NCBI GenBank assembly: GCA_964645485.1
Contig: CAZXZO010000001.1
Span: 18,203-82,202, forward strand
DNA: 64,000 nt
Direction: 5' to 3'
DNA from: an uncultured Candidatus Poseidoniales archaeon
GTDB taxonomy: Archaea > Thermoplasmatota > Poseidoniia > Poseidoniales > Thalassarchaeaceae
Below, in pieces: positions 572-21,056 of this stretch. Position 1 is the first letter of the stretch, and each line of letters opens with the position of its first letter. Below the pieces are notes generated by a model. It was not told where the DNA came from. It did not search any database and saw only the letters and a program-made list of their open reading frames with translations. The position numbers were made by a program, and so were the translations under genes.

Positions 572-628
572 TCAAGCGAGAGGAAGTTCGTAATTTTGTG
601 GTGGAGCGATTCCTAAATCGTCTGGAAT
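572..628 (-). repeat. Diverged tandem copy of the last 19 codons of taw1 (IPDDLGIAPPQNYELPLA*)
   Basis: 572-628 aligns to 629-685 at 46/57 nt, head-to-tail and in frame directly after the taw1 TGA. Confidence 0.95.
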
Positions 629-1753
629 TCAAATCATTGGAAGTTTGTAATTTTGTGGTGGAGCAATCCCTAAATCATCAGGGATTTGCCGAGTAGCAAT
701 GGGCAAGGTTACAGGAATAATTTCCTTACCAATCAGCGCTACTCGACTCTCGCGCCGGTCGGATAGAACTTCTCTGCCAACTAGAGGAGCAAGAGTGTTT
801 GAGAACTCCATGATATCATCGTGAGAAGGCATGTTGTCAATCGTGTGATTGTTTTGGGAATGTCCAACATGGACGTATCCCTTTGCCTCTATCCAGTCAG
901 GGTCTGCCAAATTATCAAGTCTGGCATAATCATCGTGATGACCTAGAGATTCACCTTTCAAGAGCGTATGGCGACACACAGTTCGGGTGTCCAAAGAGGG
1001 GAGCAGTGCGAGGGTTTGCTCAAGTTTTTCCCAGGCATTATCGTTGAACTTTGGTTTACAGAGTTTGTTGAAAAGTTGTTTATTCGGGGCATCAACACTG
1101 ATGTAAAGTTGGGTTGGGAGGGTGTCAAGATTTTCAATTACTTTTGGCAATGAACCATTTGTTACGAGGAAAGTTGAGACACCGTGGTCGTGACAGATTT
1201 CAAGAAATTCAGCGAGCCGAGAATACAGTGTTGGCTCACCGTTGAGAGAGATTGCAACGTGTTTCGGGTTTTGTGCGGCTTCCCATTTTTCAAATGGTAC
1301 ATCTTTGTGACCTTTGAATCCGGTTAGGAGTCTTCTGTGACCTCGAACACTTTCATAGAAAAGATGCTCAGGGTCGTCATCAACTTTGTTCAAAGTTTCT
1401 GAATGAGGTTCTCTCCAGCAGTAGGTGCAGGCGAGATTACAGGTGTCAACATTTGGTGCCATCTGCATGCATCCAGAAGATTCAATTCCGTAGAATGTGC
1501 CTTTGTAGCAATGTCGGTCATTCTTGAGGTCTTCTTTAGTCCAGTGGCAAACTTTGACACCACCGTGTTCTCCAACAAGTTGGTAAGATTGTTTGGCTAG
1601 TTTCACAGCAATTTCAGGTTCGATTTTGCTTTCACTAGTATAGGTAGTGACAGGGCTTCCTTGGGCTGGCATCGCGAATACCTCCAACAAAAACAGATTC
1701 CACAGCGGGATTGTGTCAGTAGTAAAGCGGGCGAGTAGCCTATCAGACTTCAA
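629..1753 (-). CDS. taw1: 4-demethylwyosine synthase (radical SAM, TYW1/Taw1); likely start ATG at 1672
   Basis: CNLACTYC radical-SAM motif, VKVCHWTK and CYKGTFYGIES motifs, AISLNGEPTLY, FLVTNG, WIEAKGY. Confidence 0.95.
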   Translation of the reverse strand: MKSDRLLARFTTDTIPLWNLFLLEVFAMPAQGSPVTTYTSESKIEPEIAVKLAKQSYQLVGEHGGVKVCHWTKEDLKNDRHCYKGTFYGIESSGCMQMAPNVDTCNLACTYCWREPHSETLNKVDDDPEHLFYESVRGHRRLLTGFKGHKDVPFEKWEAAQNPKHVAISLNGEPTLYSRLAEFLEICHDHGVSTFLVTNGSLPKVIENLDTLPTQLYISVDAPNKQLFNKLCKPKFNDNAWEKLEQTLALLPSLDTRTVCRHTLLKGESLGHHDDYARLDNLADPDWIEAKGYVHVGHSQNNHTIDNMPSHDDIMEFSNTLAPLVGREVLSDRRESRVALIGKEIIPVTLPIATRQIPDDLGIAPPQNYKLPMI

Positions 1754-1791
1754 CCCGCCGATTAGCAGAGAAACTTCTCCTCAAAATCTTG

Positions 1792-2187
1792 TTATGGTTT
1801 AATCCCGAGAACTTTAACACCATCAATTCCGATAAAATCACGGTCCTTAGTAATCAACGTTTGACCTGTTCTAATACTCACTGCTAGCATGACAGCATCA
1901 GCAAGAGAGAATTTGGTTCGACCTTCTTGGCGGCATTGCCATTTAATTTTCCCACTTTCGATGAGGTCGTCTTTAGTCAGGGAAATCTTGGTTACGAATA
2001 ATTCTACTTCAGTAAATGAAATATTAGGGTCACGATTATTTTTTACTGTAACATCTGAAATTTCTGCTAGTTGGTGTTGAGTAATGTACGCATTTTCACC
2101 CGATTCAATCAATAATTTAGTTAATTCAGTACTGACCGGTTCACGTTCCCAAATAAAATCTAAGACGATACTAGTATCAAGGATCAT
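1792..2187 (-). CDS. vapC: PIN-domain toxin (VapC-like)
   Basis: MILDTSIVL N-terminus, SLADAVMLA and LITKDRDF acidic PIN motifs; 4-bp overlap with the upstream antitoxin. Confidence 0.9.
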   Translation of the reverse strand: MILDTSIVLDFIWEREPVSTELTKLLIESGENAYITQHQLAEISDVTVKNNRDPNISFTEVELFVTKISLTKDDLIESGKIKWQCRQEGRTKFSLADAVMLAVSIRTGQTLITKDRDFIGIDGVKVLGIKP

Positions 2188-2489
2188 TCCTTATCCACTC
2201 CATATTCTGATTTATCAGATTCCTCAAAATCGTCAGTATCGTAATCCCATTGTTCGTGCTCACCGTACAGCCTTTTGAGGGAACCTCTTGCTGATAAAAT
2301 CCGTTGAATTCGTTTTGCTTCAAGTAAATCGGCCACATTGATTTCAATTATTATTTCATCACCTTTCTTTATTCCAGCATTTGCTAGTATTTTTTTGGGC
2401 AGAATTATTCCGAGCGAATTTCCAATCGCTCGAACCTTCGCTTTTATTGTTGATTTTTCAGACGCCTGATTTTGCTCAATAGTTTGCAT
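2184..2489 (-). CDS. AbrB/MazE/SpoVT-family antitoxin
   Basis: KVRAIGNSLGIILPKKILANAGIKKGDEIII swapped-hairpin signature, acidic C-terminal tail, directly upstream of the PIN gene. Confidence 0.9.
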   Translation of the reverse strand: MQTIEQNQASEKSTIKAKVRAIGNSLGIILPKKILANAGIKKGDEIIIEINVADLLEAKRIQRILSARGSLKRLYGEHEQWDYDTDDFEESDKSEYGVDKE

Positions 2490-2511
2490 GTATTATGCTA
2501 TTTGTTGACAC

Positions 2512-2536
2512 TATTTAAGATATTATGTTATAACAT
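2512..2536 (-). promoter_or_regulatory. Putative TATA box and palindromic operator of the TA operon
   Basis: Minus-strand TTAAATA at 2512-2518, about 25 bp before the ATG at 2489; perfect 12-bp palindrome ATGTTATAACAT at 2525-2536. Confidence 0.55.
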
Positions 2537-2634
2537 TGCTTGGTAATAATGAAAAATCAGAACATAAATAATCAAGAAAATTGGAATCCAAAACGTCAGA
2601 ATTTGAGCCGATTGGGTAAAATTCAACATGAAAA

Positions 2635-3492
2635 TTAGGCAAAATTTCCAGACTGATAATCAATAAATGCTTGCTGGATTTCAGCCTCCGTATTCATCAC
2701 GAATGGACCATATCTTGCTATCGGCTCGTTCAGTGGTTGGCCTGCTAATAGCAGTAATTCGGCACCTTCAACGGCATCTTTTGTAACAGAAAATGTGATT
2801 TCATCGCCATCAGTCAAAATTGCCATCTCTCCGTCATTTACCTCTTGTCCATCCTTCCCCCCGCCAACATTGAGAGCCCCACCAAAACAGAAGACAAGTC
2901 CGGTCAACCCTTGAGATAGGGATTGTGTGAGTGAACCTCCCGGAAGAATAGAAATGTGTAGGTAAGTGATAGGGATAACCGTATCAATAACCGCAGAAAC
3001 ACCCAAACTTTCACCGGCGACAACCACCACTTTGACTAAACCGTCCTCCGATTTTCCGACAGGAATTTCTCGGGCTGGTACATCTTGGTATCGAGGTTGC
3101 ATCATTTTCTTTTCACTGGGTAAATTTACCCAAATTTGGAATCCATGCATAATGCCGCCGGATTCTAGAAAGTCGTCTGGCGGCATTTCAGAGTGAATAA
3201 CTCCGCGTCCAGCAGTCATCCATTGCACGTCTCCTGGTTGCATCAGACTTGAATTACCAGCCGAATCCTCATGCAAGATTTTGCCCTCCAACAGATAAGT
3301 TACGGTCTCAAAACCTCGGTGTGGGTGAGAGGGTGCGCCGATTGCTTCACCGGGTGGCCAGTCGATTGGGCCCATCTCGTCGATGAGAAGAAACGGGTCG
3401 GTTAATTTTCCAAGAGCTGCTGGCCTGCGGACAGGAAAACCTCCACCTTCTAGGAGCCTGTGTGTGGGGATAATCTGGGCAACTTTTCTCAT
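2635..3492 (-). CDS. Pirin family protein
   Basis: DPFLLID, HPHRGFETVTYLLEG, GDVQWMTAGRGVIHSE, GFQIWVNLP, YGPFVMNT. Confidence 0.97.
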   Translation of the reverse strand: MRKVAQIIPTHRLLEGGGFPVRRPAALGKLTDPFLLIDEMGPIDWPPGEAIGAPSHPHRGFETVTYLLEGKILHEDSAGNSSLMQPGDVQWMTAGRGVIHSEMPPDDFLESGGIMHGFQIWVNLPSEKKMMQPRYQDVPAREIPVGKSEDGLVKVVVVAGESLGVSAVIDTVIPITYLHISILPGGSLTQSLSQGLTGLVFCFGGALNVGGGKDGQEVNDGEMAILTDGDEITFSVTKDAVEGAELLLLAGQPLNEPIARYGPFVMNTEAEIQQAFIDYQSGNFA

Positions 3493-3737
3493 GTTAAAAT
3501 CGCCTTGGGTTGCAGATTATTTAATGCTTTTATACAACAATTGGGATGTAATTGGAAATTTTTTTTGACTTGGTTCCAGGCGATTTCTCATCTGAAAATG
3601 TGGCTTTTATATTCCAAATAGCGGACATTGGTTATATTTTCCATTCAAGAAAATTGAAAATGTGGTGCAAATTTTTCACCTTGCTTTTGTCAACGTAACT
3701 GCACTCTATATTACACCGGTCTATTTCGCCCGGCTTA

Positions 3738-6296
3738 ATGAGTGAACTTGCTAGCCTCAAGAAGCGCCGCCGACTGACGCTTTTGGCATTTGGATTAGCG
3801 ACTATTTTCATCTTTTCCGGCTTTGTTTTTGGACCTTCAGGCAACAACCGTTCGGCCTTCACTTTGGTTGATGATGAAACTTGGGCTGCGGCTGCATTAG
3901 CCGATGAAAGAATGACTGAACCTGGCCATGATGCAGTCGTTTTCATCGGTCCAAAATGGGACACCGAAGGTGGTAATATTTTGGCTCTTTCAGTTTTGCA
4001 GGAATTGACCGACCGTCACGATGAAGTAATGTCAAATCCAGAAATCAATGAGCATTTCATCGAAGTTTACCAATGGCAAGTTCAAGCGCATGTCAGAGGC
4101 CCTTGGGGTTTTGGGGAAACCGTTAGAATGGTGATGAATCAAGAATCAATTGTTAGCCAACAAATAGGTTGGAACGGCTCAAGTTTCGAAAACGCCACCA
4201 GCGCCGATTTAGACGATGTGTTGACTAGACTTTTCAACTTCGAATTAGAAGATGGTAGCAAGCCATACAGGCTTATTGTCAGCGGTTTAGAACAAAAATC
4301 AGATGAATCTTGGTATGCCTGCGCAAGCATGATTTTTGGAGTTGCAAACTCCTCATCTTTGTTCGGAGAAGATGGTGAATACTCCAAGGTTCCCGGGGCC
4401 GACAAACCCTTCTTTGAGGAGTGGGAATTGTTGATCGACGACGTCTATGCTCAACCCATGGATGCGACAGGGGAAGATGTTCACGTGTGGTCATTCTTGG
4501 CTATTGACTCAGAGGTAAATGATGAGGTCAACCAAACGATGCCACTGATTGGAGTCTCATTTGTGTTAATGGTGGCTGTAATCGGGCTTTTCTTCCGCGA
4601 TTGGCGCGACGTTCTCTCTGCTACTGCTGGCCTTGGTCTGCTAATGGGTTGGATGTTTGGAACTCAAGCATGGTTAGGTTATCCACAGACCCAAGTTTCT
4701 GCAATGTTGCCAATTCTTTTACTCGCTCTGGGTGTTGATTTCTCTTTCCATAGTTTACAACGTTGGCGGGCGATTTCACACCGGAATGGTGGTGATGAAG
4801 AGGCTAGATTAGCGGCTGCATGGACAAGTATTGGCGAACTTAAGCCTGCACTTGGATTAGCAACAATCACCACCATGATTGCCTTTGGAACCGCTGCATT
4901 TTCTCCAATTCCTGATTTGGCAGAATGGGGTAGGTTAGCAGCGATTTACATTCCCGAAGCCTATCTGTTGCTAGGAATTTTCACAGTGGTACTGCGCTCA
5001 GGAAATGCTGTGCATCGTGGTGAATCACAGAAAGGATTCGCAGAAAAAATGCGTTCTCTTGGAGATTTTCAGGTCAAAAATCCTCTACCGTTTGTTCTAG
5101 CACTGTTGTTACTCTCAGGCAGTGCTTTTGTAATTGGTCAACCCGATTCTGATTTTGATGTTCACGACTATCTGGATGGAGATTCAAGGATGGTTCAATC
5201 GCTAGATACCGCGGCGATTGCATTTGACGAATCTAGTTCAGGTGAACCTGGATTTATTTTAGTCCAAGCAGGAGAGTCATCTGATCTGGCTAATTATGAC
5301 ACAATTCTACAACTTGATGCTTTGATGACTGATATTCGTCAACGCAATTGGACATATGATAATCCGACTATAATTGATGAAATCCGTTGGCAAATCGCAC
5401 TTGTAAATGCCGGAGGACCCGGATATAATTCTTCAACAATTAATCAACAAACAGGATTCCCTGAATCAAGTGCTGATATCCGTGCAATCTTAATTGACAT
5501 CTCAAGAAATGGAACAATGAATCCAGCAGATCCTCGCTCAATATCTACACCAACTCAAGTCGCTGCAATTGCCGCAATTGATTCAGAGACAGGCAAGTTA
5601 GAGATGCTAAAATTACCAATCAAGGTAGAGAAAGCTGAAGATTGGGTTTGGATGGGCGAGTATCAAGATGATGTTGAAGAGGTTATAGACCAACATTTAG
5701 ATTTCAGCAATGGGGAAAAGGCAATATTAACAGGGATTTCATATCAACGATATGTGTATGTAAATGCGATGACAAGTTCATTCCAGAACAGCATTTACAT
5801 CGCAATTATTGCCTGCTTCATTGTACTAATGTTCGTGTTTAGAGATATTCGACTTAGTGTGATAACAATTACACCAGTCGCCGCAGTCTCTTTTTGGCTA
5901 TATGCGGGAATGAATCTCGCAGGCCAAAGTCTCAACATTGTAACTCTCCAAGTCGCAAGTTTAGCCATCGGTTTGGGCTTGGATTATGCAATCCATGTTA
6001 CTCAAGCAATTCGCGAACAAAAGGAGCGACGTCCTGACGCGGGTATGGCGCGTTGGGTGCGGGGTATGATGGGTCACACAGGTACTGCGTTATTCGCCTC
6101 AGGTTTTACAGATATTCTCGGGTTTGCGGTGCTGCTTCTCTCGGTAATGCCGATGTTCACTATGTTTGGAAAAGTCATGATTGTCATGGTTATACTCGCA
6201 CAGGCTGCTTGTGTGTTCATTTTGCCAGCACTTTTGACCCTATTTGGTGGACTTGAAAATGATGTTGAGGCGGCAGACCCCAGCCTAGAATCTTAG
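3738..6296 (+). CDS. MMPL/RND family transporter
   Basis: Two TM bundles, each after a large extracytoplasmic loop; ALGVDFSFH and IGLGLDYAIH motifs. Confidence 0.9.
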   Translation: MSELASLKKRRRLTLLAFGLATIFIFSGFVFGPSGNNRSAFTLVDDETWAAAALADERMTEPGHDAVVFIGPKWDTEGGNILALSVLQELTDRHDEVMSNPEINEHFIEVYQWQVQAHVRGPWGFGETVRMVMNQESIVSQQIGWNGSSFENATSADLDDVLTRLFNFELEDGSKPYRLIVSGLEQKSDESWYACASMIFGVANSSSLFGEDGEYSKVPGADKPFFEEWELLIDDVYAQPMDATGEDVHVWSFLAIDSEVNDEVNQTMPLIGVSFVLMVAVIGLFFRDWRDVLSATAGLGLLMGWMFGTQAWLGYPQTQVSAMLPILLLALGVDFSFHSLQRWRAISHRNGGDEEARLAAAWTSIGELKPALGLATITTMIAFGTAAFSPIPDLAEWGRLAAIYIPEAYLLLGIFTVVLRSGNAVHRGESQKGFAEKMRSLGDFQVKNPLPFVLALLLLSGSAFVIGQPDSDFDVHDYLDGDSRMVQSLDTAAIAFDESSSGEPGFILVQAGESSDLANYDTILQLDALMTDIRQRNWTYDNPTIIDEIRWQIALVNAGGPGYNSSTINQQTGFPESSADIRAILIDISRNGTMNPADPRSISTPTQVAAIAAIDSETGKLEMLKLPIKVEKAEDWVWMGEYQDDVEEVIDQHLDFSNGEKAILTGISYQRYVYVNAMTSSFQNSIYIAIIACFIVLMFVFRDIRLSVITITPVAAVSFWLYAGMNLAGQSLNIVTLQVASLAIGLGLDYAIHVTQAIREQKERRPDAGMARWVRGMMGHTGTALFASGFTDILGFAVLLLSVMPMFTMFGKVMIVMVILAQAACVFILPALLTLFGGLENDVEAADPSLES

Positions 6297-6403
6297 AGTG
6301 GAACCATCATCTAGACTCATTCTACTTTCAATTGCCAAATGCTGGAAGAATACCACTTCTTAACTCCAATTGTTTAATCAAATTCAGCATGCAATTTACT
6401 CAT

Positions 6404-7438
6404 TTATTCAACACTAGAATTCCAATTTTGCATCAAATTTAATTCTTCAGTGACTCCGACCACATCGCCATCTTCCCACCAATCAACGGCGATGAAAGTC
6501 GGGCGATTGCCAACTTCTTGCCAGCATTCAATCGCCCTTGCCAACAAAGTCTCCTTGTCATTGACTTGTTCAGCCCTTTGGGAGTCAGCTAATCCAAGGG
6601 GATTACTCAACCAATTATTGAGATGCCAAACCGGCTGTTCTCGGTCTCCCCGACCCACATCACAGGACATATCCTCTTGTTCGTCTTCTCCGTAAGGGGT
6701 GTCCCAACTATGGGTCCAAGCATGGTGTAACCACGGGTATTGCGTATCGTCTCCTTCATCCCAAAATATTACCAAAGTGCGGTTTGAGAGCACCATTTCT
6801 CCAAGGGTAGGCCAAGGTTCTCCAGGTGAATGAACCCAAGTCCGGTCGAGTAGTCCAGTCTGGTTAAACAGGTGTTCAAGATGGTCAATAGGCACGTAAT
6901 TTTCTAGCAAAATTGAGACAATGTCGTTGGGTGATTCGTTCATGAAACTACTCAATTGAGAGAGCCACGCAAAGGCGTCCACTTCCGAATATTCACACGG
7001 GTGCAGGGATTGGTCCGGGTCGCCATGGCAGAATACAACATCCTCCTTGTTAGTCTGGGATGCTGATTTGTGATGGGTGTCAAGCATATAGGCGCGGATA
7101 CCTCCGTTCCACTGTGCAGTCAATCCGGTATCGTGGTTGGCTGCTAGATACAGGACTCCATCTTCGCTAGTAGCGAATGAGTTGTGGGTTTCAGCGAATG
7201 TGAAATTGTCGTAGGTTCGGAGGCAAAATTCGACCAGGCCTTGACAGGCTGGGGCGTCGGTGGAATCGTTTGGGTTGAGGCCGAATTCAGTCTCATAGCC
7301 ATCAGTCAGGCCGTCGCCGTCGCTGTCAGAATTTGGGTCAAATTCTGGTGAATTAACACCACCTAAACAGCCGGCAAAAAATAGACTAAAGGCTAAAAAA
7401 AGAGCGCAAAAAGATGAGCGCAGACAGGGTGACATCAT
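6404..7438 (-). CDS. PI-PLC X-domain phosphodiesterase, probable lipoprotein
   Basis: FAGCLGG lipobox-like signal, DSDGDGLTD Ca loop, THNSF and GIRAYMLDTH catalytic segments, PTFIAVDWW. Confidence 0.8.
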   Translation of the reverse strand: MMSPCLRSSFCALFLAFSLFFAGCLGGVNSPEFDPNSDSDGDGLTDGYETEFGLNPNDSTDAPACQGLVEFCLRTYDNFTFAETHNSFATSEDGVLYLAANHDTGLTAQWNGGIRAYMLDTHHKSASQTNKEDVVFCHGDPDQSLHPCEYSEVDAFAWLSQLSSFMNESPNDIVSILLENYVPIDHLEHLFNQTGLLDRTWVHSPGEPWPTLGEMVLSNRTLVIFWDEGDDTQYPWLHHAWTHSWDTPYGEDEQEDMSCDVGRGDREQPVWHLNNWLSNPLGLADSQRAEQVNDKETLLARAIECWQEVGNRPTFIAVDWWEDGDVVGVTEELNLMQNWNSSVE

Positions 7439-7557
7439 TCACTGATGTTAGCCACTTGGGAATCAACCCTTCGTAAACCAAGGGGCTTTTTTATTTCTCG
7501 GACATTGGGTATTTCACCTGAACGGCCTTCATAGTAATTTTTCATTTACAGCGAAAT

Positions 7558-7778
7558 TTATCGTTCGCTATCCCCGCGGACAATTTTGACTCCTTTTGGC
7601 CAAAGCACGAGAATTAGGGTTTTTTCACGGGTTTTTGGATTGTGGGTAGTTTCGGGGCCCATCCATACTAGGCTGCCCTGTGGGTACGTCCCTGACTCGT
7701 CGTACACCTCGCCACGCAGAACTAGGTAAGCCTCTCCACCTGGGTGCATGTGGGGCATAAACGCCTCCACCTCAACTT
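7558..7778 (-). pseudogene. Displaced 3' fragment of the cupin gene; could still encode a 66-70 aa mini-cupin
   Basis: 96% identical to the 3' half of 12682..13047 but with a different C-terminus (KIVRGDSER* versus KII*). Confidence 0.85.
7582..7778. repeat. 197-bp direct repeat, left copy (att-like)
   Basis: Matches 12688-12884 with 8 mismatches; 7695-7778 is identical. Confidence 0.95.
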
Positions 7779-10375
7779 TGGTTTCTCAGAAACTTCTTAT
7801 TGAAGAAAATTAGCACTAAAAAGAGAGAGGCCATTGAGGAAAACAGAAGAAGCCCATCCTGAATTGTTGATGTTGTTTCGTATTCTAGTGTGGCATTTGT
7901 GTGGTGTTTACAGCCATCAAGAGATTTCATTGAATCCACTGGTTCGTAGGGGCAACGATCAGCGCGAAATTCTCCTTCGATCCATAATCCAATTCCATCT
8001 TGGCGGGAATCATTCCAACTAGTATTCCACCAATTGTCACCCCAACTATCTCCATCACTATCATTCCATTGATAATAATTTAAGGGGAACAAGTCAATCA
8101 AATCTGCCCATCCATCTTGATCTATATCAGGGCATCCAAGATAATTTGCTTCTGTACTAGTTCCACTATCAAAGATACAGGCATCAAATTCATCGAGCCA
8201 ATCGTCATTATCATCATCATCGTCTTCATCAGAATCTCTACAACCATCAAAATCATTGTCACTGTTTGAATTGATAGTCCAATTGACGATTCCAATTGGA
8301 CAAAGGTCCCTTAAATCAATCAATTCATCGTTATCATCATCATCATCTTCCGTTGAATCTTGACAACCATCTCCGTCATGGTCGCTAGAATTGTTTGAAA
8401 TCCAATCAATATTCCCCCTAGTACAATAATCTGAGATATCTACTATACCATCATCATCATCATCGTCATCTTCCGTTGAATCCTGGCAACCATCTCTATC
8501 ATGGTCGCTAGAATTGTTTGAAATCCAATCAATATTCCCCCTAGTACAATAATCTGAGATATCTACTATACTATCATCATCATCATCGTCATCTTCCGTT
8601 GAATCCTGACACCCATCTCTATCATGGTCGGTTGATTGAATTGAGGTCCAGTTAAGTGTTCCTCGTGGGCATGAATCATTGAAGTCTATAATTCCATCAT
8701 TGTCATTATCTTCATCACAACTGTCACCTATATCATCACCATCATAATCTGATTGATTCGGATTTTCGGTTAAATTGCAATTATCTAAATAGTTGGGTAC
8801 ACCATCGCCATCTTTATCTGGATAAAATTGCCATAGAAAGAAATCTACATTCCTATCTAGTCCAAATGCAACTTTTGTTTGATTTTTAACACTCATATTG
8901 TAGGTAAATTTCCCGACCACGCTTATCATTCCATCATTTGATACCTCAATCGATATGGGTAGTCCGGATGGGTTTGTTTCAAGAGGCCCAGAGAATTCCG
9001 CCAACCAATATTTTTCAATGATGTTTTCATCATTGATTTTTAAAATAATAATAGCACTATTTGTTTTAATTGGCAGTGGCTTGTCGTACCAACTCGTATT
9101 GCCGTAGTATTTGATTGCTGCCAAGATACTTCCATCAGGGTGTTGAGTAACACTGTTAGGGATTACTTGGCTCAAAATTGTACACTCATTCGTTTTGACA
9201 TTAGTCCAAATCCCATCCTCACTGATAAATCCAGTGAATGTATTACAACTCAAGCCATTGATTTCAAATGTTCCGAACTGATAAGTATCATTAAAAAATG
9301 CTGGATTTGATGGATACATCCTTTGCATCCTTCCAGTAATAATAACTGATTTATTATCTAACAATAATATGTCAAAAATTTCAACTTGGCCCACACCATC
9401 AATAATAATTTTTGATAGTAGGTTCCAATAGCCTTCGCTAGAATAATGGAGAATGAAGGCACCTAGAGGGATATGTGAATAATTTTGGTCATGCGACGTA
9501 TTGATTGAATGATCACCAAATGATATATTCCCCTCTAAAATGACTCCCACTATCCATGCACCATCATTATCACATTCAAGACCATTCAATATAAGGGAAG
9601 AAATACTTCCTCCCTCACTACTTTCAATAGACTCGATAAAACCATAAATTCCATATTTCATGACAAATATGTCAAATCCTTGGCTTGTTACTTCGTTACT
9701 TACCGTGGTTGGGGATATTCTACCAGAATAGATCCCGGAAACGTATGAATTTCCAATGCTATCATGGCAAACTAATTGTGCACTCGACGAATCAAGGGAA
9801 AATGAGGGTTCATTATTGAAAATTTGAGATGTCAATAGTTCTCCAGAAGTTGAAATTATCGCAATAAATCCAGATTTATTTCCCTCATTTAGATAAGTAA
9901 AATTATTAATTGTTAGGTTTGTATAGACCTCGCCAACAGCAGTAATTGTATCAGATTGAGATATAGAAAAGTCAAAAAATCTGGCGCTGGTGCCAAGATC
10001 AATTATCCAATCAATACTCCCATTTAGTAAGTATTTTGCAATGAATGAATTACCATTTGTGCCATCTGAATTGTTAAAGAGATGGTTTCCCAACCATCCC
10101 CACGAACCAAATTTCCCGAGAACATACGTGTTTCCTTCCGAATCAAAAATTTGTTTTTCAAGTTGGTCTCCATGTCCTTCGCCACCACCAGATTTAAGAA
10201 TATGGACATAGTTTTCATCAGATAATGGGACATTTTCATCAGCTAATAGAATGTCATTTTGAAGAACAAGGTTTGATGCTGAATTCAACAATAACATCAC
10301 TATGGTAATCAACAAAACAAATTTACTAAAATATTTGGTTTGTGGCAGTGATAACCCCTTGTCGTTCATCAACAT
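7772..10375 (-). CDS. Membrane-anchored beta-propeller (SBBP-like) protein with TSP3-like Ca-binding repeats
   Basis: Signal/TM at the N-terminus; repeated D-x-x-GN-x-Y-V-x-G and FIAKY blades; DxDxDG/DDDNDG repeats with Cys; C-terminal TM. Confidence 0.8.
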   Translation of the reverse strand: MLMNDKGLSLPQTKYFSKFVLLITIVMLLLNSASNLVLQNDILLADENVPLSDENYVHILKSGGGEGHGDQLEKQIFDSEGNTYVLGKFGSWGWLGNHLFNNSDGTNGNSFIAKYLLNGSIDWIIDLGTSARFFDFSISQSDTITAVGEVYTNLTINNFTYLNEGNKSGFIAIISTSGELLTSQIFNNEPSFSLDSSSAQLVCHDSIGNSYVSGIYSGRISPTTVSNEVTSQGFDIFVMKYGIYGFIESIESSEGGSISSLILNGLECDNDGAWIVGVILEGNISFGDHSINTSHDQNYSHIPLGAFILHYSSEGYWNLLSKIIIDGVGQVEIFDILLLDNKSVIITGRMQRMYPSNPAFFNDTYQFGTFEINGLSCNTFTGFISEDGIWTNVKTNECTILSQVIPNSVTQHPDGSILAAIKYYGNTSWYDKPLPIKTNSAIIILKINDENIIEKYWLAEFSGPLETNPSGLPISIEVSNDGMISVVGKFTYNMSVKNQTKVAFGLDRNVDFFLWQFYPDKDGDGVPNYLDNCNLTENPNQSDYDGDDIGDSCDEDNDNDGIIDFNDSCPRGTLNWTSIQSTDHDRDGCQDSTEDDDDDDDSIVDISDYCTRGNIDWISNNSSDHDRDGCQDSTEDDDDDDDGIVDISDYCTRGNIDWISNNSSDHDGDGCQDSTEDDDDDNDELIDLRDLCPIGIVNWTINSNSDNDFDGCRDSDEDDDDDNDDWLDEFDACIFDSGTSTEANYLGCPDIDQDGWADLIDLFPLNYYQWNDSDGDSWGDNWWNTSWNDSRQDGIGLWIEGEFRADRCPYEPVDSMKSLDGCKHHTNATLEYETTSTIQDGLLLFSSMASLFLVLIFFNKKFLRNQS
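8250..8650 (-). repeat. 123-bp (41-aa) intragenic tandem repeats
   Basis: DHDRDGCQDSTEDDDDDDDxIVDISDYCTRGNIDWISNNSS unit; TCCAATCAAT at 8401 and 8524 gives the 123-bp period. Confidence 0.9.
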
Positions 10376-10403
10376 CCCCCCGCCTTCATTTATTATTATT
10401 GAG

Positions 10404-12614
10404 TTACTCCAAGATACTCCAATCTGAAGGTGTTTGGCACATTAACTGGAAGTTACCGAGATTGCATGGGGTCGCAGAATTGTGAAAAATATATTGATTA
10501 TCGGGGTAGGTTCCGGTATGACCTGACATAACAAAATACAGTTCAGGCTCTGGGGTCATTGAGTTTAATTCGTAAGACCCAACATAAGATACACCGTTTA
10601 CAACAGGTCCGTATTTTTCGTCAGTTATCTTGCGATGTTGGATGACAAAAGAACCAATACAGTATGATTGAGTTGATGAAGGTGATTGGCAACCTAGAGT
10701 GTCAGTGGAATCTTCGTAAGTCGGCCAATTCGAATTGATGTAATTCCACAGTTCATTACAACTAATAGAATCCCAACTGCAAGATTGGCTTGTATCTCTA
10801 GACCAAACGGATATAGGGGCAGAAAACCCTAGCATATGGCTGTTGATTGTTACCAATTGATTCGGCAAATGGTCCACCTCGTTTAATCCTCTAATTGATA
10901 ATAGGCCATATGGTAAATAGTTCACACTGGTGGGATTTGGGTCTTGTCTTTGAATATTTACCCACCAATTTTCAATGTAATAGCCACCCGGCATCCATTG
11001 GGTAGCTTTGAAAATCGGATTTAATTCAATTCGGGTGTAGTTTAACCAATGGGTGCCAGTGATGAATGCGTTGTTCTGTGTCGGCCCATCATTGATTTTA
11101 CTTTGCCATGAAGGGAAAAAATACACAGGATTGAACGCCCCTATTGGATTAGATTTTTCCATGATATCTCGAGGCAGGCAGTTGATTGGATTGTAACAAT
11201 AACCTAAGGTAATAGAGTTCGTTATAATACTGCTGAACGGAAAACCAAACCGTGAATATGGGTGACCCGGGCCACCTAGGGAATGGCCGATTTCATGTGA
11301 TAATGTGATTGCACTCTCAAATATTGGATAAGATTGTGACCAACTCGGGGAATTTCCAGTTCTTGATGTTTGGACGAAAATAAATCGGCCATTGACTTGA
11401 CGAAAACTTGGATGTTGTTCATTTACTAAGACACCATTAGCTCGAAGTGCGGGAGTTGAACAGCCTTGGAGATTGTTGCCGGCACTATTTTTCACAAGAT
11501 TATCCCCCGAAATGAACATAACTAGGTCAACGTCTTCGGTTAGTTCATCATAAATAAGACCATAGTGTTCAATGATATCAGTTTCAAAACTATGCAAGGT
11601 TTGAGTTAATTGGGCAGGATAATTATCGTCCTCACAAATTGCGCCTCTAAATCCATAATTAGTCTTTGTAAATCCATTAATTGAATCAATTATAGAATAA
11701 GGTTGGGTTGAGAGTATATCTTGATATGATGTATATCTCGTCCATTCAACTGTGATTCCTAACTGGTGACGATACCATAAACTAGTACTCGCGAGTATAC
11801 TTTCAATCATGGCCGTGCCGACAGGATTTTGGTTTGACGTAGTTTGAGTCCCTAAGTCAACCACATGAACTCTTAATAATTTGAACACATTTAGCGAGAG
11901 ATTTGTATTCAGAGCCATCGGTGAATAATACCAATCTTCAAATGCAGATGGTGCAGTATAGGGGGTGGTGCCTGCAATTTCGCATGCTGATGTGGTTTTA
12001 CATGCATCATATACAATTACATTCACATCTCCTGAGTTTGATTCAAGAAGTTGAATTTGAACACGATTTTCAACTTCAATCAAGGCTCGAAAATTGTCTT
12101 GAGGATTTCTTGGAAAAAATAAAGTTCCATAGGAAACTTCATCCTGATATTGGGTAATGCCTTCAATCCACCATGAATCCACTCCTTGATCTGGGCCCGG
12201 TCCATCTCCTAAGCTCAGGGGACCAAGGGTGGTTGAGGTTGCAACAAAATCCCACTCAATTACAGAAGAACCACTACCCAATCGCAAAGTTATTCCCCCT
12301 TCACATAAGAAAATATGTTTAATTTCGTCTGGAGTAATAGTTGAGGACGATGGGTTTTGAAATCTCATAAGTTTATTATTAACAATTTCTATTTTTGTAT
12401 AGTTGAGAGGGTGATCGGCGGTTAGCCATTGACCATCATGCCAATTCCCAGTTGAATCCCAAGAATTTTGTGCAGAGATTGTCGGCCCACAGTCATTCTG
12501 CCAATGGTGAGTTGAGCTATCTGAATAACTCTCTGCAGATGACATTGAAATTAATGGTGATAATAGTATTAGCAATACGAAAGTTGCTATTACCTTAGTA
12601 TTTTTTTTATTCAT
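10404..12614 (-). CDS. Secreted zinc metalloprotease, reprolysin/M12-like metzincin
   Basis: Signal peptide, DVDLVMFISG strand, HEIGHSLGGPGH zinc motif, downstream RDIM Met-turn. Confidence 0.7.
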   Translation of the reverse strand: MNKKNTKVIATFVLLILLSPLISMSSAESYSDSSTHHWQNDCGPTISAQNSWDSTGNWHDGQWLTADHPLNYTKIEIVNNKLMRFQNPSSSTITPDEIKHIFLCEGGITLRLGSGSSVIEWDFVATSTTLGPLSLGDGPGPDQGVDSWWIEGITQYQDEVSYGTLFFPRNPQDNFRALIEVENRVQIQLLESNSGDVNVIVYDACKTTSACEIAGTTPYTAPSAFEDWYYSPMALNTNLSLNVFKLLRVHVVDLGTQTTSNQNPVGTAMIESILASTSLWYRHQLGITVEWTRYTSYQDILSTQPYSIIDSINGFTKTNYGFRGAICEDDNYPAQLTQTLHSFETDIIEHYGLIYDELTEDVDLVMFISGDNLVKNSAGNNLQGCSTPALRANGVLVNEQHPSFRQVNGRFIFVQTSRTGNSPSWSQSYPIFESAITLSHEIGHSLGGPGHPYSRFGFPFSSIITNSITLGYCYNPINCLPRDIMEKSNPIGAFNPVYFFPSWQSKINDGPTQNNAFITGTHWLNYTRIELNPIFKATQWMPGGYYIENWWVNIQRQDPNPTSVNYLPYGLLSIRGLNEVDHLPNQLVTINSHMLGFSAPISVWSRDTSQSCSWDSISCNELWNYINSNWPTYEDSTDTLGCQSPSSTQSYCIGSFVIQHRKITDEKYGPVVNGVSYVGSYELNSMTPEPELYFVMSGHTGTYPDNQYIFHNSATPCNLGNFQLMCQTPSDWSILE

Positions 12615-12681
12615 ATATTTTGGGTATTTTCGATGAGTTATATAGTTATACTAAAACTGATTTATGTTCTTTTATCTAGTC

Positions 12682-13047
12682 TTAAATAATTTTGACTCCA
12701 TTTGGCCAAAGCACGAGAATTAGGGTTTTTTCGCGGGTTTTGGGGTTGTGGGTAGTTTCGGGGTCCATCCATACTAGGCTGCCCTTTGGGTACGTGCCCG
12801 ACTCGTCGTACACCTCGCCACGCAGAACTAGGTAAGCCTCTCCACCTGGGTGCATGTGGGGCATAAACGCCTCCACCTCAACTTCTGCATCTGCGTCGTA
12901 TAACACTAGTGAGCAATCACCTTCTCTGGCAAGTTTACCTAGGCGTACGCCAGTTCCAAAGTCCTTCCAGCGGATATTTTCTTCAAGCCATGCGTCATCA
13001 ATTGAGATACCGAGCCAATCTGACAAGTCGTGATTGAATGCCATCAA
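12682..13047 (-). CDS. ChrR-like cupin domain protein
   Basis: PHMHPGGEAYLVLRGEVYDESGTYPKGSLVW...THNP matches cupin motifs 1 and 2 (H-x-H, E, H). Confidence 0.85.
   Translation of the reverse strand: MMAFNHDLSDWLGISIDDAWLEENIRWKDFGTGVRLGKLAREGDCSLVLYDADAEVEVEAFMPHMHPGGEAYLVLRGEVYDESGTYPKGSLVWMDPETTHNPKTREKTLILVLWPNGVKII
12688..12884. repeat. 197-bp direct repeat, right copy (att-like), forming the 3' end of the intact cupin gene
   Basis: Matches 7582-7778; offset 5106 bp. Confidence 0.95.
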
Positions 13048-14278: not shown

Positions 14279-14311
14279 GGGGGGCGGCAGCCACCCTACG
14301 GAGGCAGCCCC
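14279..14311 (-). terminator. GC-rich hairpin directly after the HAD gene stop
   Basis: Minus strand GGGGCTGCCTCC-GTAG-GGTGGCTGCCGCCCC, an imperfect stem. Confidence 0.35.
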
Positions 14312-15392: not shown

Positions 15393-15423
15393 CTCAATTT
15401 TTTGTTGTTTTTTTTATTAAACC

Positions 15424-15610
15424 ATTTTTCATAGGGAGAGATTTTCTGTTTTTTCTTCATTTTTCATAGCGAGAGATTTTTCTGTTTTTTATGATTTTTC
15501 AAGGTGAGAGGTTTTTCTGTTTTTTCTTCATTTTTCAAGGTGAGAGGTTTTTCTGTTTTTCTTCATTTTTCATAGCGAGAGATTTTCTGTTTTTTCTTCA
15601 TTTTTCAAGG
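15424..15610 (-). repeat. Tandem array of five 35-36 bp units echoing the MFS gene 3' end
   Basis: Units start at 15424, 15459, 15494, 15530 and 15565; the last contains the gene's stop; consensus ATTTTTCAwrGyGAGAGrTTTTCTGTTTTTTCTTC. Confidence 0.95.
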
Positions 15611-16865
15611 CCAGAAATTTTTTCTCACCCGGTCCAACTATGATTACCCAACATACACCTGACAGGACTTGTAGGATGGCAAAAATCTGGATTCCTTCAC
15701 GCAGTGTCATGTTTGTATATTCTAGGAGTAGGCTTGCTGCTAATGTTGAGAATCCGTTTAGGAGAGTCATCAGCAGGAAATCCGTGCTAAATACCCGGCC
15801 CCTCCAAGCATCCTCACTTCGCTCTTGTAACAGAACAGTCGACAGTACCCAGTTTGCTCCACTCGCCGCATGTCCTATGGTGACAAGGGCGGCAACCCAT
15901 GGTGACCATTCAAGCCAACCTATGGCCATATATGCCAGCCCACAGGCACTCACTAGCCAGCCAAGGAAGAACGGCCAGCGGCTACGATCTGTGAAAGCGT
16001 AGCGTGCAAGAATGGGGCCCAATCCTGTTCCAAGTCCTCGAGCAGCAAACAGAATGCCAATTCCTGCGGCAATACTGCCAACCCCCATATCATCTCCAAC
16101 AAGGACTAGCATGTAGACAAGCCCGCCACCAAACACGCTCCATAGCGCCTTAGCGGTGATGATTCTTCGAACTGGGGGTGTACTGAAAATGATTCGAAAC
16201 CCATCGGTGATTGTGCCTGCTGTATTGGCCCAAATCCCTCCCGGTTTTGCAACATAAGCCTCCTGTGGAATATCGATTGTGCTGTACATAAACGCAGCAA
16301 CCAAGAATGATATTGCATTTACCACGAAGGCAACTTCAACCCCATAGGCTGCAACGACAAATCCGCCAACACTCGCACCTAAACACAATGCAGCACTCCA
16401 CGTTCCGCTGTTCAGCGCATTTGCTGTCAACAACTCGTTATCTTCTGTGATGTTTGGAATCGAAGCATTTTCTGCGGGAATGAACACTGCGTGAAGAATC
16501 ATCAGAACACTAGAGATGACATAGACAAGCCAAACCTCGCTGGCATCATCAACTAGTAACAGCAACAAGACGGCTACAGCCGACAGAAGATTGGCCCAAA
16601 TCATCAGCCACTTCCGACTGAATCGGTCGGCCAACATTCCAGTGAATATTTGAGGAAGAGCCAGCGAGAACATCCTGATAACAAATAGTAGACCAATGCC
16701 CAGCTCCGACCCAGTTAGGGTGTAGATTAGGACGAACAGTGCAACGGTGTTGAACCATTCCCCTAGCATAGAGATTGAGAGACCAATCCACAAACGACGA
16801 TAGACAGGATTGCCTTTGAGAAGTTCGAGAAACCCTACCTCCCGTTCCTGCATGGCTCGCGCCAC
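15570..16865 (-). CDS. MFS transporter (H+ antiporter DHA3-like)
   Basis: About 12 TM helices, GMLADRFSRK motif A, WRGRVFS. Confidence 0.95.
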   Translation of the reverse strand: MARAMQEREVGFLELLKGNPVYRRLWIGLSISMLGEWFNTVALFVLIYTLTGSELGIGLLFVIRMFSLALPQIFTGMLADRFSRKWLMIWANLLSAVAVLLLLLVDDASEVWLVYVISSVLMILHAVFIPAENASIPNITEDNELLTANALNSGTWSAALCLGASVGGFVVAAYGVEVAFVVNAISFLVAAFMYSTIDIPQEAYVAKPGGIWANTAGTITDGFRIIFSTPPVRRIITAKALWSVFGGGLVYMLVLVGDDMGVGSIAAGIGILFAARGLGTGLGPILARYAFTDRSRWPFFLGWLVSACGLAYMAIGWLEWSPWVAALVTIGHAASGANWVLSTVLLQERSEDAWRGRVFSTDFLLMTLLNGFSTLAASLLLEYTNMTLREGIQIFAILQVLSGVCWVIIVGPGEKKFLALKNEEKTENLSL

Positions 16866-16913: not shown

Positions 16914-17477
16914 TTGAATGGGCGGCACGGACCAAAAGTGATGGCAAGCGACAACTTGGTATGGATTGACTGTGAATTCACTGGGTTAGACCCAGATGAG
17001 AATCGTCTAATTGAGATTGCAACAATCATCACAGATTCCGAGTTAAACGTCATCGCGGAAGGGCCTTGCCTAGCGATTCACCAATCACCCGAAAGATTGG
17101 CAAGAATGGACGAGTGGAACACCACCCACCACACTCAAAGTGGGCTGGTCGAGAAGGTTTTGGAGAGTGAGATAAACGATGCCGAGGCCGAGAGACTTAC
17201 TCTAGAGTTCGTGCGCGAATACACCAATTCTGGGTCTTCACCACTGTGCGGAAATACGATTTCTCAGGACCGGCGCTTCTTGCGCCGCTATATGCCTGAG
17301 TTGCATGCACATTTTCATTATCGTAGCATTGATGTTTCGACTGTTAAGGAGTTGGCAAAAAGATGGAATCCAGAGATTCCGGCAATGCCGAAGGCGGGCG
17401 GCCACCGCGCTTTGGACGATATTCGTGAATCGGTGGCCGAACTGGCTTATTACCGAGAAAGAATATTCAAATCTTGA
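16914..17477 (+). CDS. orn: Oligoribonuclease (DEDDh); likely start ATG at 16941
   Basis: [63 protein letters not shown]. Confidence 0.97.
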
Positions 17478-17590
17478 AGTAGAAAATTTTCTTTTTAGTT
17501 CCTGAAGTTGGAATATTTCAAACGGTTGAGTTGGAAAAAATCTTCAAATCGTGAATTTTTCATCCAGCCAAGTTGGCTATCAGAAATTTA

Positions 17591-17731
17591 CCCTAAATTC
17601 AGAAATTATTCGTCAGAATCAGGGTTTATTCATCAAATTAAGAAATTTTATTTCGCAAATTAAGAAATTATTCGCCAGAATCAGGGTTTATTCATCAAAT
17701 TAAGAATTTTTATTCCCTAAATTCAGAAATT
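17591..17731. repeat. 62-bp tandem duplication anchored on the JAMM gene stop codon
   Basis: 17596-17657 versus 17658-17719 match at 56/62; CCCTAAATTCAGAAATT is identical at 17591 and 17715. Confidence 0.9.
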
Positions 17732-18502
17732 TTCCCAGCCATATGGGTAACCTTCTTCATCAACGAAAATCACATTGATGGCATTTCCTGACCGATGAAA
17801 AGAAATCAATTCTAATCCGTGAATACTGTGCCCTGTTGGAGCAACTCCCAAGACTGGTTTTTCTGGTGAATTTTTCCATCTACCCCAACCGCGTTTTTGG
17901 CGCACAGGAGCGACCTGTTCAGGTTGCAACTTTCTGCGCACCCCATCAGTATCATCATACCACCCGAAGGGTCCAGAAGGTGAGAATTCAATCCCCAAAA
18001 TCATGTCAACTCCAAGAGTGTACTGAGCCGCTTCAGCATCTTGCTTTGATGGTACAGCAACTGCGTTGGGATGGGTATGTAACCAATGTACAAATCGCCC
18101 ACCCCTTGGACCTCGGCTTTCTGAAAAAATGCCGTCGGTCCATTCTTCAGGAACATGGTGGACAGAGAACGAGTCACCTCGATTTACGATTGTAGCATCA
18201 CCCAAGATATAACCTTCTCCAGCAAATAACCCAATTTCATGGTCATCTCCCTCAAATAATTCCTCAACTTCTCGATGATGAGGTCGGGCATTATTAGCAT
18301 CCAATCCAATTAGGATTTCATCAGGTAGTGATTCTAATGACCAATGTAGAATCTGCTCAAGTGTAACGCCAGGCATCATAACTAGGCCGCGATATCCCTC
18401 TTTATTGGCAAGTGAATCTGCGTTGTACGCTGACATCGCCGAGACTAGCCAACCATCCACCATAGACACGCTCCGGCGGTGAATCCTTAACAGGATTGGC
18501 AC
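17723..18502 (-). CDS. JAB1/MPN/Mov34 (JAMM) metalloenzyme family protein
   Basis: HTHPNAVAVPSKQD equals HxHx7Sx2D; upstream PDEILIG glutamate. Confidence 0.75.
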   Translation of the reverse strand: MPILLRIHRRSVSMVDGWLVSAMSAYNADSLANKEGYRGLVMMPGVTLEQILHWSLESLPDEILIGLDANNARPHHREVEELFEGDDHEIGLFAGEGYILGDATIVNRGDSFSVHHVPEEWTDGIFSESRGPRGGRFVHWLHTHPNAVAVPSKQDAEAAQYTLGVDMILGIEFSPSGPFGWYDDTDGVRRKLQPEQVAPVRQKRGWGRWKNSPEKPVLGVAPTGHSIHGLELISFHRSGNAINVIFVDEEGYPYGWENF

Positions 18503-19225: not shown

Positions 19226-19233
19226 TTCTCAAT

Positions 19234-19593
19234 TCACTTTTTTTTAACCCAAATATTGAGGTTTGTAAGGTTGAACTTCAAAATCGCTTGGTCAGCCCCT
19301 GCCTTGAGCATTTCTCGGTTAGCGAAGTCTGCCGAACTAATTCCTATGATTTGATTGGGTCGTTTCAATTTCCCTTCGCTGACCGCCTCATTGAGCATAT
19401 TGAGAACTTCTAATCCTTTGAATGGTGGCATGAAATAGTCCAGAAGTAATACATCCGGTGCAAATTCCTTGATGATTGTCACAGCATCTTCAGAGGTCCA
19501 ATTTTGTTGAAATTTGAGTTCGCTAGAATCAACATCTCCAGCAATTAATAAATCCAAAATATCATAAGAATCTTCGAAAGCTAAAACACGCAT
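19234..19593 (-). CDS. Stand-alone response regulator receiver (CheY-like)
   Basis: RVLAFED acidic pocket, DVLLLDYFMPPFKGLEVL phospho-Asp segment, IIGISS, AGADQAILKF. Confidence 0.85.
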   Translation of the reverse strand: MRVLAFEDSYDILDLLIAGDVDSSELKFQQNWTSEDAVTIIKEFAPDVLLLDYFMPPFKGLEVLNMLNEAVSEGKLKRPNQIIGISSADFANREMLKAGADQAILKFNLTNLNIWVKKK

Positions 19594-19678
19594 TCTACCA
19601 GACCACTGATTTTTGTTTATTCATCTTGTATTTCATTCCTCTCTTTAACCAAGAATTAAGCCGGTTAATTCAAAGGTT

Positions 19679-20935
19679 ATGTCTAGTGTTGGAGAATCGT
19701 TCCTCATGGTAAATGTCAGCCCGACTCAGCATTTCATCCCGATTAGTCGGGCTGAAATTAAGTCGCTAATATTGGCTGAAAGCGGCGATAATTCAGAAAA
19801 AATAGCAAAAATTTCAGAATTATTGGAGGCACTTTGGCATCATAGAATGCACTCCACTCAAGAATCTCTAAAACGCATTTACTCAGAATTTGACCCTGAT
19901 TCAACAGATGAAGCACCTGAAAAATTTGACCCTACTGAATTCATGAGCCGATTCAGAGATGCTCTAACTGATGGCAATTGGTTAGAAATTACAGATGAAG
20001 AGATGCAAGTAGCATTAGATGGTGAAGATGTGTTCCCAATTAGCCTAGATGTCAGGTTTGAAGAATTCAATTTTTTAGAAACTTACAAATTAGGAGAGAA
20101 GACAATCAAAATTTCAAGGGGCCCCTCACTTTTCGAGAAATTGGTATTGAGAAAAAAACCAATTGAGGTTGATTTGGAGGTGTATGAACGGGTTATCCAG
20201 GTAATGCAGTTTCATGAGAAAGGGTGGTTCACGGAGAACAAAACGTTACGAAATTATCCAGGTGTTGAGGCGAAAGGGTTGCACTTGAAATTATTCAAGA
20301 CTATTCCGAAACTCGACTTGGAAGTAATTTTTCCCAACACTTCACCAAAAATGAGAAGAATAGACCAAATGAAAATATTAGCGCCTTTGGTTGGTGGGTT
20401 AGCCACTTTGGGGATGAAGTTCGGTCCTCTGCTGTTTGGTTATGGTTCAGGGGAAACATCTCTGGCCCTCATTGGCGGAATCTTGTCAGCTTTAGCAACC
20501 TATATTCTCAAGTCTTGGACTAAATATATGAAAACTAAAGAGGCATATCTCTCACAAGTTTCTAAAGACCTTTATTTCAAAGGTCAAGCAAATAATCAAG
20601 CAGTCATCAATATGGTAATCGATTTTTCAGAAGAACAAGAGGTCAAGGAGGCTCTGCTTGCTTACTCATTCCTGCTGTTGGATAGTGGTAAAAAACATAC
20701 AATTAATTCACTTGATAGTCGAATAGAACTTTGGTTGGCAAAACACGGTGTGAATGTGGATTTTGAGGTCGATGATGCACTCAACAAGTTATTTGAATTA
20801 GGGTTGGCGAATTTGGAAATTGGAGAAAGTGGTAGCGGAAATTCAATAACTTCCGAGCAGAAAATTACTGTACTTGAGCCAGATGAAGCATTAGCACGTT
20901 TGGATGAAATATGGGATGGTATTTACAATTACTAA
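19679..20935 (+). CDS. DUF3754/TMEM143-like membrane protein
   Basis: KLFKTIPKLDLEVIFPN, a TM hairpin, EEQEVKEALLAY and VDFEVDDALNKL motifs. Confidence 0.8.
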   Translation: MSSVGESFLMVNVSPTQHFIPISRAEIKSLILAESGDNSEKIAKISELLEALWHHRMHSTQESLKRIYSEFDPDSTDEAPEKFDPTEFMSRFRDALTDGNWLEITDEEMQVALDGEDVFPISLDVRFEEFNFLETYKLGEKTIKISRGPSLFEKLVLRKKPIEVDLEVYERVIQVMQFHEKGWFTENKTLRNYPGVEAKGLHLKLFKTIPKLDLEVIFPNTSPKMRRIDQMKILAPLVGGLATLGMKFGPLLFGYGSGETSLALIGGILSALATYILKSWTKYMKTKEAYLSQVSKDLYFKGQANNQAVINMVIDFSEEQEVKEALLAYSFLLLDSGKKHTINSLDSRIELWLAKHGVNVDFEVDDALNKLFELGLANLEIGESGSGNSITSEQKITVLEPDEALARLDEIWDGIYNY

Positions 20936-20964
20936 TCGCAAAAGGCAGATGCCTCTTACTCATA

Positions 20965-21056
20965 TCAAACGGTGCCACCAGCAAATTTCAAACGGTGCTG
21001 CAAGCAAATTTCAAGCAGTGTCCCAAGCAAATTTCAAATGGTACCGCCAGCAGATT
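20965..21056 (-). repeat. Four 23-bp units echoing the 3' end and TGA of the thioredoxin-like gene
   Basis: Units at 20965, 20988, 21011 and 21034 all begin TCAA (TGA on minus) and end AGCAAATT or AGCAGATT. Confidence 0.95.

Follow-up and report, generated by a model that had tools for sequence, protein, structure and literature searches.

Introduction

Integrative elements can occupy the 3' end of a protein-coding gene, as prophage e14 does in icd, and diversity-generating retroelements (DGRs) likewise place a diverged copy downstream of the 3' end of a gene. Repeats in Ehrlichia ruminantium also overlap gene ends. The present work concerns a 64,000-nucleotide stretch of an uncultured Candidatus Poseidoniales archaeon, hereafter the window (G000:C1:18203-82202), in which several genes, among them taw1 and a cupin gene, are followed by copies of their own terminal codons. 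We call such a copy an echo and the gene's present end the live end. The source genome, G000, is a scaffolded metagenome-assembled genome (MAG) of 1.94 Mb that is 82% complete; the relatives compared are coded G001-G018, contigs of G000 carry C codes, and X2-X5 denote contigs from other sequencing runs. Our analysis indicates that the real feature is a mixture of two ordinary processes, together with an unexplained excess specific to this lineage. The question addressed is how the abundant but uncultured Marine Group II archaea exchange DNA and gain surface-protein genes. A first-pass annotation of the window, made from the letters alone, knew of no description of the phenomenon in this group, and literature searches found no account of it in Poseidoniales.

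Several described systems resemble these loci in part. Linear DNA that has circularised and enters by a single crossover duplicates the end of lacZ over 109-950 bp (PMC3240628). Like such insertion-duplication, and like homology-facilitated illegitimate recombination (HFIR), which joins at 3-10 bp of microhomology, the echoes involve no dedicated enzyme that could be found, homology at one end and duplication of a gene end (PMC3240628), and the repeats of 197 bp at the cupin and of 193 bp on contig C10 fall within the laboratory range of 109-950 bp (PMC3240628). HFIR usually deletes resident DNA of similar size (PMC3240628), whereas the resident end is kept here; moreover, both processes were demonstrated in bacteria in the laboratory, whereas this archaeon is uncultured. 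As insertion-duplication would have it, the two copies come from different functional alleles at taw1, the cupin and two loci outside the window, tpiA and pyrC, although this grouping was made post hoc.

A replacement end, a displaced end after the cargo and empty sites are shared with additive islands such as the tRNA-fragment cassettes of Candidatus Actinomarinales (PMC7771536). Unlike these islands, the loci described here involve many unrelated protein-gene targets, no common att motif, varied repeat lengths, mostly no cargo and no integrase that could be found (PMC7771536). The layout of an integrative element, with cargo flanked by repeats of the target 3' end, is present at the cupin and pyrC and missing at taw1, MFS, JAMM and trx, where no gene at all lies between the live end and the fragment; neither a cognate integrase nor reuse of a site by different cargo together with an echo was found. 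In the WHO elements at yeast FBA1, an incoming allele likewise replaces the 3' end and pushes the older end downstream, forming stacks as at pyrC (PMC7282813), but the cargo here contains no recognised endonuclease gene, and there is neither a single target gene nor a sign of homing. Because the defining enzymes were not found, the loaded loci are not classed as islands or WHO clusters.

The remaining resemblances concern cargo-less repeats and archaeal gene uptake. Head-to-tail units of 20-90 bp, variability between strains and concentration in one lineage recall the minisatellites or variable-number tandem repeats (VNTRs) of Wolbachia, which stem from slipped-strand mispairing, and the repeat-rich genome of E. 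ruminantium (PMC3287509); unlike those, about half of the non-coding arrays here take in a stop codon, and a minority resemble alleles rather than decayed copies. The deletion-coupled insertions and repeat-bounded indels of Haloquadratum walsbyi (PMC3119063) are also archaeal and reflect untargeted uptake, probably from close relatives, with variable content at identical positions, which recalls the interval between the cupin and taw1. They differ in that resident sequence is deleted or repeats of mostly 4-20 bp are used, and allelic gene-end duplicates do not figure in the passages that describe them.

Two classes of echoes

The echoes are of two classes: displaced allelic ends, at taw1, the cupin, tpiA and pyrC, and neutrally decaying tandem repeats. 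At taw1, the echo and the live copy (572-628 versus 629-685) differ at 11 positions, seven of them at codon position 3, amounting to 6 synonymous and 3 non-synonymous codons. The echo is identical to the allele of G009, another species, at 51/57 positions, as compared to 46/57 for the adjacent live copy, with one amino-acid change specific to the echo, and it forms the ancestral end together with the bases downstream of it. The taw1 echo thus has the appearance of a working allele, not that of a slippage copy in decay. A natural taw1 allele ending in LPMI* (the asterisk marks a stop) was not found, and exact-protein look-ups for both taw1 and the cupin returned no matches.

At the cupin, the repeats at 7582-7778 and 12688-12884 are 96% identical, with 8 differences (5 synonymous and 3 non-synonymous). 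The relative G011 has an empty cupin site: its gene ends in KIVRERSGR* and is directly followed by the orthologue of the gene at 6404-7438, while its cupin C-terminus and downstream spacer are orthologous to those of the echo. The empty, echo-type end in G011 implies that 5,106 bp, comprising the 197-bp repeat and the 4.9-kb cargo, were inserted, and that the live end is new and the echo old. The proposal of the first-pass annotation that the cupin echo is a displaced original end is thereby borne out. Empty sites occur in relatives at every locus tested. The cupin end was not found in viral contigs, and no nuclease Pfam match was obtained in the cargo of the cupin or of pyrC.

The interval between the cupin and taw1 (window 1754-12681) is a flexible region, the content of which differs in nearly every relative. 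It is empty in G010 and G018, contains pirin alone in G017, MMPL and pirin in G009 and G016, and other genes in G001, G003 and G005. A PIN/MazE toxin-antitoxin pair at 1792-2489 is found only in G000 and G011 among the mapped loci.

Table 1. Gene ends, echoes, repeats and cargo in the window (window coordinates; the asterisk marks a stop).
Feature	Position	Strand	Pfam
taw1, radical SAM wyosine-forming enzyme, live end LPMI*	629..1753	-	PF08608, PF04055
taw1 echo, displaced ancestral-type end LPLA*, continuous with ancestral downstream spacer	572..628	-	
ChrR-type cupin gene, replacement end KII*	12682..13047	-	PF12973
Proximal copy of the 197-bp direct repeat, the live cupin tail	12688..12884	-	
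Cargo, 4.9 kb, low GC (37.7% vs 44%), missing at the cupin site in relatives	7779..12687	-	
Cargo protein, 736 aa, weak reprolysin-like match	10404-12614	-	
Cargo protein, 867 aa, TSP3 repeats	7772-10375	-	
Cupin echo, distal 197-bp repeat (7582-7778) with original C-terminus KIVRGDSER* and decayed GC hairpin	7558..7778	-	
Gene directly after the cupin in G011, marking the ancestral downstream side	6404..7438	-	
MFS minisatellite, 35/36-bp units (not multiples of 3)	15423..15622	-	
Short echo of the end of a convergent gene (16914-17477) for an RNase T-family exonuclease	17534..17554	+	
JAMM minisatellite, 62-bp period of 20-22-bp subunits, new present stop	17591..17738	-	
trx (AhpC/TSA-like) array, 23 bp x4	20965..21056	-	

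Assembly support

All five repeats reported in the first-pass annotation are present at the coordinates given there, and Pfam matches bear out the gene names. Since the source is a scaffolded MAG, we considered whether strain variants had been co-assembled head to tail. Exact 55-bp duplicates flanking 100-N scaffold gaps (lag 155) are indeed artefacts that mimic echoes and have to be filtered in scans of this kind, and a few near-identical arrays are found elsewhere in G000 (C3:12311, C13:3798). However, the taw1 echo is bridged by one X2 contig of even depth (153x) that spans 450-7624 with four differences, and likewise by one X3 contig (450-3595), and X2 contigs cross all four cupin junctions; this support comes from contigs rather than single molecules, and X2 and X3 possibly stem from the same campaign as the source sample. 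In addition, many units show non-synonymous decay that matches no coding allele. Such an artefact is largely refuted for taw1 and the cupin, and we regard it as very improbable as an explanation of the echoes. In the assembly check of X2-X5, made over a stretch that excludes trx, the copy numbers of the MFS and JAMM arrays were not bridged by the listed contig pieces.

The marine runs X4 and X5 contain a close relative with about 97-98% identity on long pieces. Most of the cupin cargo is uncovered in X4; as the gap is not spanned by any contig, it was not scored as an empty site. Some contigs of X3 have loose ends, a hint of different cargo beyond 12599.

Loci beyond the window

The end of pyrC, which encodes a dihydroorotase-like amidohydrolase, lies about 3.4 kb past the window (C1:85610-87516; L116:2111-4017) and is followed by a 1.8-kb cargo and a 61-bp echo. 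The echo begins at a palindrome, or hairpin, with an 8-bp stem. G011 is loaded with the same cargo (79% identical gene) and has an echo of its own starting at the same hairpin, and the site is empty in G005, G009, G013 and G017. Right after the stop, G000 carries a 34-nt displaced end that is closer to the cargo-side end of G011 (IQFV*/IQFA*) than to the adjacent live end. With this G011-like piece included, the stack in G000 holds three or more ends that differ in type. The pyrC locus is the best example of stacked allelic ends, and the only locus that stacks ends; the stacks envisaged by the first-pass annotation thus have a true example just outside the window.

A tpiA-like gene, named from its sequence, carries an allele-like 54-bp echo (C31:11534-11654; L105:735-855). 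This echo resembles the G014 end, and attached to the live end are 12 bases that do not match the spacer of the resident.

Two further places show a related arrangement. At C10:33898-37901 (L118), perfect 193-bp direct repeats stand 3.8 kb apart around some 3.6 kb of DNA, with an anatomy like that of pyrC and the cupin and a length near the 197 bp of the latter. In G011, a second cargo-separated echo (L250:11208-14911; 116 bp, 73%) encloses two cargo genes, which means that cargo-bearing echoes are not confined to G000.

Tandem repeats at other gene ends

The MFS, JAMM and trx ends present a different picture. The ancestral MFS stop, at about 15394-15396, lies downstream of the array, and the present stop at 15570-15572 results from a frameshift in the second unit. 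At JAMM, too, the stop of the relatives lies beyond the whole array. As the stop at both genes arose within a unit, each later unit repeats it trivially, and since the ancestral stop is found only downstream of either array, the units do not echo it. The description of the units as copies of terminal codons accordingly fails for MFS and JAMM. The make-up of the JAMM units differs in a sister strain, seen in X4 and X5 contigs, and at the MFS end X4 shows a small duplication of another kind (depth 5-7x).

In trx, the ancestral end AGGTV*, which G014 also has, survives in the last unit, while the middle units carry mostly non-synonymous changes (AWDTA*, ACSTV*) unseen in any coding allele. The first-pass annotation had asked whether echo units correspond to alleles of sister populations; this last trx unit matches the end in G014 and the taw1 echo is nearer to G009 than to its live copy, but the middle trx units match no coding allele. 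The MFS, JAMM and middle trx units, as well as most other echoes, are slippage-type tandem repeats (VNTRs) that decay neutrally, so that a single origin for the five loci is not supported.

A 63-nt identity between G000 and G004 was found at the trx end (window 21034-21110), just before the terminal codons of G004 itself, in genes whose proteins are 81% identical. The pattern suggests a transfer from the G000 lineage into G004. Together with patchy divergence along genes, it documents short-patch exchange within the genus.

Synonymous bias

Pooling 14 loci gave 40 synonymous and 40 non-synonymous differences, with MFS and JAMM left out of the codon scoring since their units are out of frame. 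Pure neutrality is rejected (p=5e-6), but the appropriate null has the live gene drifting at silent sites while the echo decays, and against that one the significance is modest (p=0.02). The contention that neutral decay does not predict a synonymous bias was too strong, because the live gene itself adds synonymous changes. When polarised with relatives, the changes unique to echoes number 10 synonymous and 31 non-synonymous, as expected from neutral decay, although this category under-counts silent changes.

The polarised test over all 14 loci gave p=0.01. At taw1, tpiA, the cupin and pyrC, a grouping made post hoc, 23 synonymous changes stand against 8 non-synonymous ones that are echo-side or ambiguous (p=2e-4), whereas the ten other loci, with 15 synonymous and 22 non-synonymous differences, fit the null (p=0.6). 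Over all loci, then, there is a real synonymous bias, but its size is modest once the appropriate null is applied, and it is confined to four loci. The early observation that many differences are synonymous is therefore upheld for the whole set and for these four loci, and not for the middle trx units.

Frequency and placement of echoes

We scanned the genome for a copy of each gene's last codons within 400 bp downstream (score >=15, scaffold-gap artefacts removed). Echoes were found at 20/1,430 gene ends of G000 in 19 arrays, or about 1.5% of genes, and a 5' control scan of gene starts at the same score yielded only scaffold-gap artefacts or repeats within coding sequence. The genome-wide count that the first-pass annotation called for thus exceeds chance as gauged by this control. 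With one gene caller used throughout, 22/1,392 ends in G000 compare to 0/873 in five congeners (Fisher p=3e-5, a value that ignores kinship, the congeners not being independent). Similarly, Tandem Repeats Finder detected 18 stop-overlapping arrays in G000 and none in 0.9 Mb of G011 and G016, while purely intergenic arrays per Mb are as many in G011 as in G000.

Contig C1, on which the window lies, holds 7/20 echoes but 108/1,430 genes (p=4e-4; the window itself was chosen for its echoes). The syntenic contig of G011 shows no tandem echo.

The position of the arrays at stop codons does not call for targeting. When arrays of the observed sizes were placed at random, excluding within-gene and start-only placements, 24-32% overlapped a stop, as compared to 17/37 observed. 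Start-only overlaps equal stop-only overlaps in this null, yet only 2-3 were seen in the genome. Random duplication followed by selection accounts for most of the stop-anchoring. A duplication that retains the stop spares the protein, while those within genes or across starts are purged, and for this reason both classes accumulate at 3' ends. If most echoes are merely tolerated tandem repeats, stop-anchoring and synonymous bias alone do not show targeting. No significant preference for particular stop codons was seen (p=0.15). No clear GC-skew switch was seen on C1, and there were no tRNA or Rfam matches.

The lineage-specific excess points to a changed repair or deletion rate. Repair loss was considered and rejected, since mutS is intact and NucS is missing genus-wide. 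Relaxed selection was likewise discarded: at 0.13-0.15, the amino-acid/4-fold ratio of the G000 branch does not exceed that of relatives.

Mechanism and alternatives

We propose, with a probability of roughly 0.6, that general recombination and repair generate the echoes as by-products, which selection then filters, and that this happens in two ways. In the first class (taw1, cupin, tpiA and pyrC), DNA from a related strain or species would pair with the gene by homology. Upstream of the resident stop it would be joined back in, through a short microhomology or by circularisation and a single crossover. The gene would thus gain the donor end and the DNA following it, and the resident end would be pushed downstream as the echo. 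The DNA brought in after the donor end would measure 4.9 kb at the cupin and 1.8 kb at pyrC, but only 12 bp at tpiA and 0 bp at taw1. The second class would comprise duplications by slippage or unequal crossover, followed by expansion, contraction and decay. What we infer here is that the live ends are foreign, how the joints were made and why the lineage has an excess. Allele-like echoes would preserve the end of the donor next to that of the recipient, which makes it testable by what route, and in which direction, DNA was transferred.

Several observations weigh against this proposal. No donor was found for any live end, and neither a donor nor an orthologue of the cupin cargo was found in the contig collection or in 151 genomes of the order, where only the TSP3 repeats gave matches. 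By raw count, the microhomologies span only 3-4 nt at both taw1 and trx and about 3 nt at the cupin, and none is clear at tpiA. At the cupin, the first 85 bp of the repeat are identical and all differences lie in the last 112 bp, a pattern that would call for gene conversion or for some special detail of the crossover. ATGATTT also occurs within the taw1 unit, so that the MI* end could be a local template switch. The four loci were set apart in the codon data after the fact, and taken singly none of the loci reaches significance when the test is unpolarised. Finally, a recombinase could be missing from an assembly that is 82% complete. In favour of the proposal, the one tyrosine recombinase of G000, presumably XerA, lies on another contig and has an orthologue common to the genus, and no resolvase-family serine recombinase was found in G000. 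The description of the loci as integrase-less stands insofar as no island integrase was found. A broader version, in which untargeted, recombinase-free acquisition is the lineage's main route of gene gain, fragments that start within any conserved gene replacing its 3' end, bringing in downstream donor DNA and leaving allelic echoes, loaded or not (cupin, pyrC, the C10 repeats, taw1, tpiA), and now and then stacks, is possible but somewhat unlikely; if true, gene flow between archaeal species could be read and dated from the echoes.

The cargo-less echoes might instead be slippage duplicates of the cell's own DNA, with coding alleles put into one or both copies later by homologous recombination with unduplicated relatives. 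The live copy would be refreshed from the upstream side and the echo from the side of the downstream gene, giving the same synonymous bias. States specific to G000 are common to both copies at most loci (GCT at taw1, ATA at tpiA), the taw1 and tpiA echoes adjoin convergent genes that provide downstream homology, and short-patch exchange is evident. Furthermore, the pyrC copies of G011 are 91.5% alike and carry G011-type states, though the cargo is common with G000. The taw1 data cannot separate donor replacement from such refreshing. Such refreshing nevertheless accounts for neither the foreign bases in the tpiA spacer nor the additional displaced end of pyrC nor the cargo insertions, and unduplicated donors should more often delete the duplication than refresh it; we consider this route unlikely. 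Products of a reverse transcriptase, namely DGR template and variable repeats or cDNA of mRNA ends, would match the outward layout of a gene 3' end with a diverged copy downstream. With no RVT_1 match in 21 genomes of the genus, and with only 30% of differences at echo adenines and 20% at gene adenines, we give this origin practically no credence.

The first-pass annotation favoured dedicated docking sites that are used repeatedly, with cargo-less echoes as scars of lost cargo, and a recombinase acting in trans, XerA or one from a visiting element, may be imagined to use the hairpins in an att-like manner. The changing cargo of the cupin-taw1 interval fits such sites, as do the shared hairpin at pyrC, loaded in two genomes and empty in four, and the cupin repeat, which ends at the foot of a hairpin in G011. 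Yet no echo was found at 89 other cupin loci (0/89), and all 42 distinct taw1 ends in relatives are single (42/42). The boundaries have no common motif, and echo-bearing gene ends are not more structured than other gene ends (p=0.29). The pyrC cargo of G000 and G011 is the same gene and may reflect one event, and the MFS, JAMM and trx units decay neutrally. No relative was found with both cargo and echo at the cargo-less loci, which leaves the idea of empty scars without an example. Docking sites find support only at pyrC, and we judge them improbable, in contrast to the general recombination and repair proposed above.

Dispersed hairpin repeat

A mobile hairpin repeat placed between gene end and echo was also considered as a cause and rejected, as it is missing at four tandem loci and structure is not enriched. 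As a separate observation, window 14181-14301 contains a dispersed GC-hairpin repeat resembling a miniature inverted-repeat transposable element (MITE), within a 400-bp stretch that is missing from the X4/X5 relatives. Further copies are located at C1:82952 and C1:89673 and after the JAMM stop of G011, and several are present in G001.

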